DNA of 47,600 nucleotides from Eubacteriales bacterium (lineage in GTDB: Bacteria; Bacillota; Clostridia; Oscillospirales; CAG-272): the NCBI GenBank assembly GCA_045540515.1, contig JAZQHJ010000162.1, positions 1-47,600 on the forward strand. The letters run 5' to 3'. Each line of letters starts with the position of its first letter. Within the stretch, counting starts at the first letter, position 1. Below the pieces are notes generated by a model. That model searched no databases and was not told the DNA's origin. It saw only the letters and a program-made list of their open reading frames with translations. A program made the position numbers and the translations under genes. Shown in pieces: positions 35,419 through 39,776 of the stretch.

Positions 35419-37149
35419 ATGCAGCTTGCAAAGGATGTTAAGACCATATATGGTCTTCTTCACGAGGTGGCAGGATATTTGCCAGACCATCCTCTATATA
35501 GGTTCAACAGATTAAATGCTAAGGAGGACTCACTTGTTGAGGTTTCCTATTCACAATTTGATACTTACCTACAAAAGGTAATTTTGGCATTCAAGGAGCT
35601 CGGCGTTGGCCCTGGCAAAAGGGTTGCTGTTATGGGTGAGACAAGCGTTCAATGGATTGCAACATATATTGCAACCGTTACACTTGGTGGAACAATTGTT
35701 CCTCTTGACCCTATGCTACTTGAGGATGAGCTCTTCAATTTTATGAAAATTGCAGAGGTTTCATATGTTTCCTATGGCCCTAGATTTGTTGACCTGTTCC
35801 AAAGACGTGGCGCTGAGCTTGAAAATATAACTCAATTCATCGCCTGTGAAAGACCAACCTTTACCTTAGACCCAGAGGATGAGTATGTACCAAGCAAATA
35901 TTCAACCTTTAATAATATTCTTGCCCTTGGTAAGAAAATTTATAACGAAAAGGGTGTTGACTTTGATTTAACTGACCACGACACAAGAGCAATGTCAATC
36001 CTTCTATTTACATCTGGTACTACTGGTACATCAAAGGGCGTTATGCTATGCGAGGACAATGTTTGCGCAGTTTTAAGAGGAATCATTCCTGTGCTTGACG
36101 TTCTTGACCATAATGATGCAGTTCTTTCTGTTCTTCCAATTTATCACACCTATGAAATGAGTGCAGGTATTCTTGCTCCTATGCTTTATGGCTGTACTGT
36201 AAACATTTCAGACGGCATTAAGTATGTTGGTAAGAATATTAAGCAATTCAAGCCTTCCGTTTTGGCTCTTGTTCCTATGTTTGCAAATCAGCTTTACAAA
36301 ACCGTTTGGAAAACTGCTCAAAAGAATGGCATTGAAAAGAAGCTCAAATTCGGTATGAAGCTTTCAAGATTCTTAAAGAAAATCGGTATTGACGTAAGAC
36401 GTAAAATCTTTAAGCAGGTTCACGAGGGCTTTGGCGGAAGATTAAGATATATGATTGTTGGTGCTGCCGCACTTAATAGTGATGTTGCACAGGGGCTTTA
36501 TGATATGGGTATTCAGGTATCACAGGGCTACGGAATTACCGAGTGTGCTCCACTTATTTCAGTCGTTCCACTTACAGTTAAGAATTTTGCATCCTGTGGT
36601 AAGCCAATGCCAGGGCTTGAGGTTACCATTGACAAGGAAAGCGAGGATGACCTCTCTGGTGAAATTGTTGTCAAGGGTGATAATGTTATGCTTGGCTACT
36701 ACAAGAACGAGGAGCAAACAAAGCAGGTGCTTACCGAGGACGGTTGGTTCAGAACTGGCGACTATGGTTATATGGATAAAAAGGGCTACCTATATATAAC
36801 TGGTAGAAAGAAGAATATTATCATTTCATCCGACGGAAAGAATATTTTCCCAGAGGAGATTGAGGAATATCTTGAAAACCTTGACCTTGTTTCCGAGGTT
36901 GTAGTTGTTGGTAGAGATAGCGAAAAGACACACGATATTGAAATTGTTGCTCTTATATATCCTGATGAGGAGGAATGTCAAAAGGCAGGACTCACAACCA
37001 AGGAGGCTATCCACGATGCTCTTGCCAAGGAGGTTGTTGAAATCAACAAGCAGCTTGCAACCTACAAGCATATTAACAGGGTGGAAATTCGAGACGAGCC
37101 ATTTGAAAAAACCACCACAAGAAAAATCAAAAGAAATCTTGTAAAATAG
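35419..37149 (+). CDS. Long-chain fatty acid-CoA ligase (AMP-binding)
   Basis: FTSGTTGTSKG, QGYGITE, GWFRTGDYG, ITGRKKN, FEKTTTRKIKR. Confidence 0.92.
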   Translation: MQLAKDVKTIYGLLHEVAGYLPDHPLYRFNRLNAKEDSLVEVSYSQFDTYLQKVILAFKELGVGPGKRVAVMGETSVQWIATYIATVTLGGTIVPLDPMLLEDELFNFMKIAEVSYVSYGPRFVDLFQRRGAELENITQFIACERPTFTLDPEDEYVPSKYSTFNNILALGKKIYNEKGVDFDLTDHDTRAMSILLFTSGTTGTSKGVMLCEDNVCAVLRGIIPVLDVLDHNDAVLSVLPIYHTYEMSAGILAPMLYGCTVNISDGIKYVGKNIKQFKPSVLALVPMFANQLYKTVWKTAQKNGIEKKLKFGMKLSRFLKKIGIDVRRKIFKQVHEGFGGRLRYMIVGAAALNSDVAQGLYDMGIQVSQGYGITECAPLISVVPLTVKNFASCGKPMPGLEVTIDKESEDDLSGEIVVKGDNVMLGYYKNEEQTKQVLTEDGWFRTGDYGYMDKKGYLYITGRKKNIIISSDGKNIFPEEIEEYLENLDLVSEVVVVGRDSEKTHDIEIVALIYPDEEECQKAGLTTKEAIHDALAKEVVEINKQLATYKHINRVEIRDEPFEKTTTRKIKRNLVK

Positions 37150-37268
37150 TCTTGTGACACAATCCCTCAGTCAACTACGTTGACAGCTCCCTTTACACAA
37201 AGGAGCCTTTGGACGAGCCATTTGAAAAAACCACCACAAGAAAAATTAAGAGAAACCTTGTTAAATAA
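37093..37268 (+). repeat. 57-bp direct repeat of the ligase 3' end (37093-37149 and 37212-37268)
   Basis: 52/57 identical. First 35 nt identical; all 5 differences are synonymous. Confidence 0.95.
37161..37207 (+). repeat. REP-like double-hairpin element
   Basis: AATCCCTCA-GTCAAC-TAC-GTTGAC-A-GCTCC-CTTTACACAAA-GGAGC-C. Matches a CCCTCAGTC..GACAGCTCCC..GGAGCC repeat I recall from gut Clostridia. Confidence 0.7.
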
Positions 37269-37269
37269 G

Positions 37270-37297
37270 AAAAAGCCGACACGTGTCGGCTTTTTTT
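37270..37297 (+). terminator. Terminator after the ligase (follows the second repeat copy)
   Basis: Palindrome AAAAAGCCGACACGTGTCGGCTTTTTTT. Confidence 0.85.
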
Positions 37298-37349: not shown

Positions 37350-39776
37350 TTATTCACTAAGTGTTGAATAGATTACTTCCTGTGGTGCGCCATCATTTGC
37401 GTTTATGTAGCTAACCGTGTCGTTTGCATAAATATATGCACTCATTACGAAGGAAATATCCTTTATAGCTACCTCTGCACCGTTTTCGGCATTACCGTCA
37501 AGGTCAACTTTGTTGTCCCAAATATCGCCAACTAGCTTAAAGTCTATTCTTGTGATATTGTTTTCAACAATTTCGTTTGTTACGTCTGCCTTTAATACCT
37601 TACCCTTTTCAAGTGCAACTTCATTTGCATTTGCATCAAGTGGGTTATTTGTACCAAGGTAGCTCTTTACTGCTGCAACAAATCCGATTTGTGTGCCTGC
37701 ATATACGCTCTTTAATTCTGCAAGGGCAACGTTATCAATGCTATAACCAAAGGTAATTCCGTTACCGTGTATCTTTGCGGAAAATCCTGTTTCGTCAAGA
37801 ATAATCTTGCTTGCCGTTTGAACATCAAGCTCCTCACAGCGTGAGCATTTTACACTCTTTTCGCCGTCCTTTGTGTAGTCGGCATAGGTAATTCCGACAA
37901 GAACTGCTCCGTTTTCAAGGTCATGGTTATGGCCAAGTGCTGTGTCTTGAAGCTCTGTCGTGCCTGCTAAATCACCGCAGAAGCAATATTTTGTATGGAA
38001 TACGTTTGTTACACAATCCGGCTCTGAAGCTATGGTTTTATCCGGATTTGCAATATGAGTAAAGGTTTCTTCTGTATAAGTAGTTTTTGCAAAATCAGTT
38101 TCCTTTGCATCGTAGCTGTCGCTAGGCGCACTAAAGCTTGCTAAATCATATACTACGTTTCCTGCACAGAAATATGCATAGAAATTAACCGGTTTGCTCG
38201 TTTGTTCAATATGCCACGTTGGAATCGTGTCAATGCCTGTGTTTTCTTTATGTGCAAAAACAAATGAGATATTGTTGGCTCTTTTATTCACTGTGCCATA
38301 ACAGACTTTTGTCATTTTGCCAAGGAAAACAAGCGTTATTCCACCCTTTTTGTTGTATAATCCTACATTTCCAAACGGTCCGTTTGCTGCTGATATTTCG
38401 GTAAAGGTCGTTGGAAATACTATATATCTATTCAATTGCTCACAGCTTAAAAACTCAACACCAAATATTGTGGTAAGTCCTGATGGCATATAGTAAACCT
38501 CTGGCTCCTGTGGCATAACGAAGTTATCTCCATACCAATCGCCGTTTTCGTCCCTTACTTCAAATGGGTCGTTTACAAAGTATAGATTTTTACAGCTATC
38601 GAACGCACCGCGTCCCCATTCTGCATTATCACCTATTGTGGTCAAGGTTGTTGGAAGATATACAGCTTTTAGCGCTGAACAGCCTTTAAATGCATTTTCC
38701 TCTATGCCTACAATTCCCTCAGGAATGGAAACTGCTTTAAGAGCGGTACAGCCCGCAAACATTTTGTCAGGCACGTTGCCTGTTGCGTTTGAAAGCTCAA
38801 CAAATTCAAGTGCAGTACAGCCACTGAACATTCCGTAGTTAATTGATACAACGTTATTAGGTATCTTTACGTATTTAAGTGAGGTACAGTTGGAAAAGAC
38901 TCCGTTTCCTTGAATTGAAAGCTCTGCTGTTGAAAATTTAATATCAACAAGGCTTGTGCATCCCTTGAATGCATTGTAGTTCATTGACGTAATCTCTCCT
39001 AAATCAACGGATTTAAGTGAGGTACAGCCATTAAACGGCTCCTTAGCAATTGATTTAACCGTGCTTGGAAGCACAACGGCTTTTAGTGAGGAGCAGTTAT
39101 AAAACATGTTGTCGCAAATTGACGTAAGCTGACCCAAATCAACTGATTCAAGTGCAGTACAGCCATAGAACGTTGAGCCTGATAGTGTTTCTAAGCTCCC
39201 CTCAAATTTAACTGTTTTTAGACTTGAACAGCCACTGAATGCCGCACTTTTTATCTTTGTAATGGTTGATGGAATTACAATGTCAACAAGACCTGAATTT
39301 TTAAAGCCCTTGTCAGCAATTTCTGTCACACAACCAAAATCAAAGCGCTTTAATGCCGTCCAGTTTTCGAACATAGTCGTTGAAACTGTTTTTGATGAGC
39401 CAGATGTGGTAAACCACTTTATTTCCTCACACTTTGAAAGTGGTGTGCTTGATGTTGCAAAATAACTTATTTTCGTTGATGTTTGACCGTTTGCCGTGTT
39501 TGTTTCAACAGCACCGCTCATATCAATTGCAACAATTTCGTTTTTGTCAACAGTGTTCGTAAATTCCACGTCTGAAAATAGGTCTAGGCCTAGATTTAGC
39601 TTAGGAGTTGAGCCAGTTTGGTTTTCAGTATAAACAGTTACATAATCATTTTCGATACTGCCTAGCTTAACCTTAAATTCGATATATCTGCTTGGCGTTG
39701 CTGCGCTGGCAACAATTGTAAGTGCACAAATTACCAAGGCAAGCATTAAGCAGATTAAAAAAGCTTTCCTTTTCAT
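37350..39776 (-). CDS. Secreted BspA-type leucine-rich-repeat protein
   Basis: Signal peptide ending ASA; about 12 F.GC..L..V repeats; Cys/His linker; unknown C-terminal domain. Confidence 0.88.
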   Translation of the reverse strand: MKRKAFLICLMLALVICALTIVASAATPSRYIEFKVKLGSIENDYVTVYTENQTGSTPKLNLGLDLFSDVEFTNTVDKNEIVAIDMSGAVETNTANGQTSTKISYFATSSTPLSKCEEIKWFTTSGSSKTVSTTMFENWTALKRFDFGCVTEIADKGFKNSGLVDIVIPSTITKIKSAAFSGCSSLKTVKFEGSLETLSGSTFYGCTALESVDLGQLTSICDNMFYNCSSLKAVVLPSTVKSIAKEPFNGCTSLKSVDLGEITSMNYNAFKGCTSLVDIKFSTAELSIQGNGVFSNCTSLKYVKIPNNVVSINYGMFSGCTALEFVELSNATGNVPDKMFAGCTALKAVSIPEGIVGIEENAFKGCSALKAVYLPTTLTTIGDNAEWGRGAFDSCKNLYFVNDPFEVRDENGDWYGDNFVMPQEPEVYYMPSGLTTIFGVEFLSCEQLNRYIVFPTTFTEISAANGPFGNVGLYNKKGGITLVFLGKMTKVCYGTVNKRANNISFVFAHKENTGIDTIPTWHIEQTSKPVNFYAYFCAGNVVYDLASFSAPSDSYDAKETDFAKTTYTEETFTHIANPDKTIASEPDCVTNVFHTKYCFCGDLAGTTELQDTALGHNHDLENGAVLVGITYADYTKDGEKSVKCSRCEELDVQTASKIILDETGFSAKIHGNGITFGYSIDNVALAELKSVYAGTQIGFVAAVKSYLGTNNPLDANANEVALEKGKVLKADVTNEIVENNITRIDFKLVGDIWDNKVDLDGNAENGAEVAIKDISFVMSAYIYANDTVSYINANDGAPQEVIYSTLSE

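Follow-up and report, generated by a model that had tools for sequence, protein, structure and literature searches.

The window, as we term the whole stretch of DNA analysed, comprises 47,600 nucleotides and carries an intact gene for an acyl-CoA ligase-type enzyme with an unusual 3′ end (Table 1). The terminal 57 nucleotides of the gene occur twice, on either side of a 62-nucleotide insert, and both copies encode DEPFEKTTTRKIKRNLVK*. Their leading 35 nucleotides are the same. Five mismatches follow (37128/37247, 37131/37250, 37137/37256, 37143/37262 and 37149/37268), every one at a third codon position. The original prediction of a gene end duplicated around a 62-nucleotide insert, with both copies encoding the same protein, is confirmed by the direct repeat and its translation, and the duplication is real, not an artefact. 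It was also correct that the insert is a double hairpin (none of 200 shuffled sequences is equally stable; z = -3.3) and that a terminator-like inverted repeat, 37270-37295, lies 3′ of the second copy. An Rfam scan returned 41 weak matches, none at the gathering score.

Table 1. Features at the 3′ end of the ligase gene, in window coordinates.
Feature	Position	Strand	Basis
Host gene, intact; 576-residue AMP-binding (acyl-CoA ligase-type) enzyme	35419-37149	+	ORF; Pfam PF00501, E 3e-61
Gene end (18 codons and stop), first and working copy; likely the incoming allele	37093-37149	+	Direct repeat; 3′ part unlike that of empty-site relatives, partly judged from mismatch counts
Probable remnant of a DUF559 3′ end, reading NSLVTQSLSQLR*; overlaps the host stop and enters the hairpin	37145-37183	+	Suggestive only
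Double-hairpin arm of 49 nt, equal to the right arm of the DUF559 element; 6-nt purine mirror	37159-37207	+	Profile, fold
Spacer of 4 nt between arm and second copy; constant length, variable sequence	37208-37211	+	Other loci
Second copy, displaced and untranslated; 3′ part and TAA match empty-site relatives	37212-37268	+	Direct repeat, relatives
Intrinsic-terminator-like hairpin of a genome-wide family; resident terminator	37270-37297	+	Inverted repeat; similar post-stop sequence in run X1

Terminators that share the core GACACGTGTC recur at many gene ends in the genome, that of the ligase included. Convergent on the ligase locus is a gene for a secreted-looking protein of 808 residues (37350-39776, minus strand), containing units that we take, from their general pattern, to be leucine-rich-repeat-like. 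Paralogues of this protein at C176 and C124 are likewise close to copies of the hairpin arm.

A profile search identifies seven copies of the 49-nucleotide arm in this genome. One was left out, as its left flank extends for only 21 nucleotides, and all six evaluable copies are flanked by duplicated gene termini. The duplications range from 19 to 127 nucleotides (C162, 56; C161, 72; C49, 52; C35, 29-37; C124, 19; C176, 127); for five arms the direct repeat was found within 250 nucleotides, and that at C176 spans a longer insert. The host genes at the six loci are mutually unrelated. The second copy starts exactly 4 nucleotides past the arm at five of the loci and 8 nucleotides past it in C35. 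That all six carry duplicated ends upholds the earlier proposal that the repeat is a mobile unit, non-autonomous and associated with the duplication of gene ends. The left copy at C124 is accompanied by 48 nucleotides of 5′ region that are missing on the resident side, where the start of the gene overlaps the stop of the gene upstream; the left flank came from another genomic context. Elsewhere in the assembly, near-identical direct repeats of 39-85 nucleotides occur between genes (C171:4308-4527, C157:7922-8157, C25:203-513 and C179:6524-6783), enclosing structured-looking inserts of other families; these are possibly further target-duplicating elements.

The arm copy at C176 retains its gene, a 122-residue DUF559 ORF (PF04480, E 2e-29). 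The stop codon of the preceding PHP-domain gene overlaps the DUF559 start as ATGA, the arm itself makes up the final DUF559 codons (QSLSQQG*), and 4 nucleotides beyond it comes the second PHP-gene end. The full element can be written as gene terminus, (inverted arm), DUF559, arm, 4 nucleotides and second copy of the terminus. The complete unit in relatives usually consists of an inverted arm, DUF559 and an arm, some 440-450 nucleotides in all, and 41 DUF559 C-termini continue into the arm. Six residues, Glu23, Asp50, Glu61, Asp63, His67 and Asp76, are invariant over 65 homologues. Profile matches are to 3hrl (7e-21) and to the nuclease domain of I-Bth0305I (3r3p, 8e-4), and DUF559 can be described as a putative nuclease of the Vsr/I-Bth0305I fold. 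The domain content is PF04480 and a weak PF18741 only, in a free-standing, single-domain ORF; a single-sequence AlphaFold prediction has a pLDDT of 49. For DUF559, nine diverged pairs at nadE give a pN/pS of approximately 0.15-0.2.

A search for a HUH/RAYT transposase or an integrase beside the repeat had been suggested. The gene that lies beside or between the arms is DUF559 instead. The Y1/HUH RAYT family (PF01797) has no match in the genome, which is 80.6% complete, the five tyrosine recombinase matches (PF00589) are all on contigs other than those bearing the seven arms, and there is no recombinase among the ORFs around the ligase locus. Two-armed DUF559 units also occur without a flanking gene-end duplication (L159, L161, L162 and L304); these four have downstream sequence in common and different upstream flanks.

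The insert in the window is probably a derivative of the DUF559 element from which the nuclease has been deleted, because the 9 nucleotides that separate the first copy from the hairpin, read in the hairpin frame, give NSLVT-QSLSQLR*, resembling the 41 DUF559 C-termini. It likely keeps four DUF559 codons, although about 1.1% of 12-mers in the genome, and one of the 28 other solo copies, score as high as this remnant. If the remnant is read in this way, the G of the TAG that ends the first copy was probably supplied by DUF559, and the fifth ‘synonymous’ change, TAG for TAA, is then probably a junction base and not an allele difference. Five silent changes had been claimed; the third-position character holds for all of them, and the last is the one in doubt as an allelic change.

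How widespread is this arrangement? We defined an anchored duplication as a repeat starting no more than 16 nucleotides from the arm end, a definition that 1 of 400 mismatched flank pairs passes. In the genus, own genome included, 36 of 90 solo arms and 8 of 19 DUF559-bearing arms have such a duplication; in other genomes, most of them titled Clostridia, the values are 14 of 134 and 3 of 12. Once 17 arrays of tandem arms and an artefact of indexing (L246) had been removed, 43 loci remained, 39 of them in the genus, with duplications of 19-127 nucleotides at what we count as approximately 28 distinct sites. Outside the genus 4 of 146 arms pass the filtering and two are convincing. Out-of-genus examples of the layout are L088 and L105, and also L298, L300 and L301. 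The copy-arm-copy layout is common in the genus; elsewhere it does occur but is rare. Not every arm is so flanked: within the genus 54 of the 90 solo arms lack any duplication, and 27 of 44 loci with DUF559 and an arm lack an anchored repeat. An exact-pattern scan of genome contigs found 126 loci, of which 117 arm matches had enough flank; none of these has a gene-end duplication at the 4-nucleotide offset within 300 nucleotides, and L088 and L105 are positive at 900 nucleotides. A mirror control was positive at 28 of 88 solo arms, for which it is not independent because the repeats abut both junctions, and at none of 18 DUF559-bearing arms in the genus. Up to 51 arm matches occur in one relative. 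No genome in the class sample that has the layout is closed; of 89 other genomes 6 matched, all of them multi-contig.

At the right-hand junction of the 43 loci, the first four nucleotides past the arm match the left copy about as often as expected by chance (20, 10, 8 and 13 of 43); agreement rises to 27 at nucleotide 5 and is 34-42 of 43 from nucleotide 9. The modal offset between arm and copy is 4 nucleotides (13 loci), and 21 loci have an offset of 3-5. The duplicated stretch is the terminus of the gene to the left of the arm, mostly a 3′ end; some stretches are the starts of leftward genes and one is promoter-like. Inspection of the joining points by eye revealed no sequence consensus. 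Tandem units of gene tail plus arm are present at L251, L252 and L197, the third tail at L251 being a different allele.

Codon comparison of the two copies was carried out for 31 of the 43 loci, 12 without a long ORF or a start being dropped. The copies differ by 98.5 synonymous and 45.5 non-synonymous changes, a pN/pS of 0.12. The synonymous share is 68%, against 21% expected under neutrality and 35% if the left copy alone were constrained, and there is no premature stop in the aligned second copies. The pN/pS value over 31 loci indicates that both copies derive from working alleles, in agreement with the view that both had evolved under coding selection; P values overstate the case because the loci are not independent. 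Exact duplications number four of 43 (L196, L209, L272 and L281). Mismatch rates are even along the duplications, at 8-10% in every fifth of 29 of them. A pattern of identical middle and diverged edges, suggested by L105, L165 and L021, is not general, as these flat rates show.

Comparison with relatives identifies empty sites. At the ligase, none of 19 relatives has an arm or a second copy within 140 nucleotides after the stop. In related strains’ assembled contigs (runs X1-X5), that of X1 omits exactly the 119-nucleotide unit and represents an empty allele. Contigs of X1, X3, X4 and X5, which come from two studies, have a base unlike that of either copy at 37095, 37110, 37113 and 37116, four differences within the first 24 nucleotides, and the totals of their mismatches would allow four more differences from the first copy. 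In X1 an A follows 37148, then terminator-like sequence. On the strength of the mismatch totals and this A we infer that the ligase tail of these relatives is of the second-copy type. The idea that the downstream copy is the resident end is thereby supported, since the empty allele matches it; of the cross-strain comparison envisaged at the outset, the empty site is found in a relative. Divergence of the relatives is 8-19% in the ligase and 2-5% downstream which, with a tail of second-copy type, makes it likely that a crossover between filled and empty alleles, in either direction, took place inside the second copy at 37236-37246. The ligase tail in its exact form had no match in a scan of metagenomes.

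The nadE locus bears on lateral spread. Of 22 loci examined the motif was found in 20, five filled and 15 empty, and filled and empty alleles are interleaved on the host tree. Genomes G006 and G017, one clear pair, both draft assemblies, have a host pS of 0.47 and a DUF559 pS of 0.014, with the element about 99% identical. Synonymous divergence of 47% in the host against 1.4% in the element argues for lateral spread of the latter. The two nadE copies in each species resemble each other and are host-type almost from end to end, short edges excepted. Solo arms also move. L191 and L264 (G016 and G020), at another gene end, are 100% identical in the arm and 97% in the 100 nucleotides upstream of the duplication; farther out the identity is 82-93%, and 82-87% in three of four windows. 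An identical arm in flanks that diverge outward indicates that nuclease-less arms travel with short flanking tracts. At filled nadE loci (L325-L329) the host frame crosses the left arm and so acquires a C-terminal extension (SSLPCAKGGGPL...) reaching as far as the start of DUF559, and the right junction is shifted by some 6-7 nucleotides between element clades.

The explanation that we favour, though only by a little over an even chance, is that a hairpin-armed DUF559 element spreads by a homing-like route and brings its own gene end, the putative nuclease acting in trans. A linear donor fragment would recombine by homology within the left-hand gene, carrying the donor terminus in with it. The right end would be set 4 nucleotides past the arm, likely by a cut of the putative DUF559 nuclease, and joined 19-130 nucleotides upstream in the resident gene, which would leave the resident end on the far side of the element. 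From an already duplicated site the unit could then enter empty alleles by two crossovers, using the spare copy as a right-hand homology arm. Arms without the nuclease would be served in trans by DUF559. Several observations sit uneasily with such a route. Host-type copies at nadE are not expected from a single one-sided event, the four loci with identical copies are what a plain target-site duplication would yield, and a DNA-binding domain apart from the nuclease is missing in DUF559. Classical homing would involve cleavage of the empty allele at a specific sequence and immunity of the filled one; the joining points have no consensus by eye, and the left copy at the ligase keeps 35 identical nucleotides.

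There is a second explanation, a serious one to which we nevertheless give well below even probability. An exact, long and variable target-site duplication of the YPAL kind, made by DUF559 or another enzyme, would later be overwritten by recombination with empty alleles. No end would be carried and no homing drive would operate; selection would retain only those insertions that leave genes whole. The four loci with identical copies fit, as do the ligase mismatches, which start where the second copy becomes resident-type, after the 35 identical nucleotides, and the nadE copies, both host-type except for short edges. Variable target-site duplications of 3-26 bp are known for YPAL/RU-2 (PMC2229807). 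A long duplication alone leaves unexplained the constant spacer of 4 nucleotides, the one-sidedness by which it is always the terminus of the left gene that is copied, the foreign 5′ region at C124 and an element 99% identical in hosts 47% apart at synonymous sites. It also requires frequent recombination ending within windows of 20-130 nucleotides at most loci. The long duplication and the homing-like route may both operate.

It had been suggested that the repeat moves as a tiny circle carrying a captured gene end and integrates by 35-bp homology. Excision of arm plus gene tail as a circle of about 120 nucleotides, re-integrating by a single crossover, would give copy-arm-copy as its product and could account for the tandem tail-and-arm units with different alleles at L251, L252 and L197, but unequal crossing-over also yields tandem units. 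Such a circle cannot hold sequence upstream of the duplication, yet co-transferred and foreign-looking sequence is found there; the mismatches contain no general identical block, and the assembled contigs of related strains display no circle junction. A linear chromosomal donor fits better than a circle because shared and foreign-looking sequence reaches upstream and the mismatches are flat, and we regard the circle as improbable.

Could the ligase-end duplication be a chimera assembled from two strains? The genomes examined are apparently all drafts, those with titles being mostly MAGs, and the best sequencing run found holds 0.22 of the words, none being of the exact strain. The assembly does have other, artefact-like, perfect repeats at contig ends. 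These are direct repeats of 74-104 nucleotides around an insert of about 84 nucleotides, the core of which occurs in 29 contigs (C1, C38, C43, C45, C142, C154, C157 and C176:1-262 among them). They are likely artefacts because the insert looks like read-through into what is presumably a sequencing adapter. They differ from the ligase case in being perfect and terminal, with a different insert, and they are absent from the contig of the window. The geometry at the ligase, the 4-nucleotide spacer included, recurs at six sites in the genome and in many independently assembled genomes, and a chimera is very unlikely. Least credible of all, close to dismissal, is that the insert is the scar of a large integrase island, with the ligase 3′ end for its attB, that collapsed, as had also been proposed: a replacement 3′ end with the original downstream is the known island layout, but nothing supports the collapse, given that the largest form found is the DUF559 unit of some 400-450 nucleotides, the five tyrosine recombinases are off the arm-bearing contigs, the 19 relatives have neither arm nor second copy in the 140 nucleotides after the ligase stop and about 28 unrelated sites are used.

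The homing-like DUF559 element can be compared with several known systems. REP and REPIN sequences are short extragenic palindromes, present in many copies and often just past stop codons, beside one bracketed RAYT gene. The DUF559 arms are likewise short, multi-copy and extragenic with one bracketed enzyme gene, but the gene is DUF559 and no Y1/HUH transposase was found in this incomplete genome. To our knowledge long allelic duplications are not a feature of REPINs. Integrative elements that restore a gene 3′ end place the replacement upstream and the original end downstream, the order seen at the DUF559 loci. Unlike these, the DUF559 element has no integrase, a cargo of less than 0.5 kb, a variable length of duplication and many targets.

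The closest parallel is in fungal mitochondria, where free-standing homing endonuclease genes are described as invading the 3′ end of a gene and bringing a replacement C-terminus (PMC4466345, which cites Paquin 1994 and Sethuraman 2009). As described there, the intact gene is separated from a displaced duplicate of its 3′ end by a nuclease ORF or what erosion has left of one, the host gene stays whole and spread is lateral. A nuclease ORF between gene and displaced end is found at C176 and at nadE in five genomes, the window copy having a probable remnant only, and spread into cognate empty alleles is indicated by the G006/G017 pair and the interleaved tree. The differences from the fungal genes described are a bacterial host, a 122-residue Vsr-fold DUF559 protein in place of GIY-YIG or LAGLIDADG enzymes, hairpin arms, nuclease-less derivatives, a fixed right junction at 4 nucleotides and dozens of unrelated target genes, gene starts included. 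By analogy the DUF559 element would work like the fungal homing genes, among which it does not itself belong.

With respect to the enzyme, I-Bth0305I is an EDxHD homing endonuclease with a Vsr-like active site of Glu, Asp, His and Asp (PMC3239194), of a fold family grouped with Vsr and DUF559 (PMC3424549). The nuclease fold family is common to both and equivalent acidic and histidine residues are invariant in DUF559, the matching of residues being our own. In contrast to the EDxHD enzyme as described, the DUF559 element has no N-terminal NUMOD or HTH region, no intron or intein host and no single long target.

Two families of small repeats resemble the arm itself. YPAL/RU-2 of Yersinia is a small G+C-rich palindrome with variable duplications, empty and filled sites and near dyad-symmetric targets, features recalling the DUF559 arms; its duplications are 3-26 bp compared to 19-127 nucleotides here, and the passage describing it names neither a partner enzyme nor an allelic difference between the copies (PMC2229807). 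The BoxC/PIT/TM repeats, which form intrastrand triplexes, are reported with no mobility genes near the motif, and the words ‘endonuclease’ and ‘duplication’ are absent from the main text of that paper (PMC4666352). Like them, the arm combines a pyrimidine-purine hairpin with a mirror purine tract; a purine mirror of 6-7 nucleotides is present in 281 of 301 arms as opposed to 8 of 301 with the tail shuffled. The TM_ECO consensus matches none of the 301.

The full-text literature searched, mostly without subscription papers, contains no description of DUF559 as a repeat-linked mobile element. The DUF559-arm element follows a known strategy in a variant form, and may represent an element class of its own. 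The fuller proposal we make tentatively, as somewhat short of an even chance: DUF559 and its arms would constitute a class of bacterial mobile element, not described so far, that dispenses with transposase, integrase and reverse transcriptase. With a predicted cut 4 nucleotides past the hairpin and the other end anchored in the neighbouring gene by host recombination, each hop would swap in a foreign gene end or start. If this is so then tiny repeats drive the exchange of alleles between species at the ends of essential genes, and nuclease-less arms of 50-60 nucleotides travel in trans.

The findings give a testable role to DUF559, a very common putative nuclease annotated as of ‘unknown function’, and present a candidate mobilizer for hairpin- and triplex-type repeats whose spread has been unexplained. 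An element of 50-450 nucleotides can enter housekeeping transcription units such as that of nadE without breaking them, and would in doing so carry ribosome-binding sites, along with the tails and starts of genes, from one strain or species to another.
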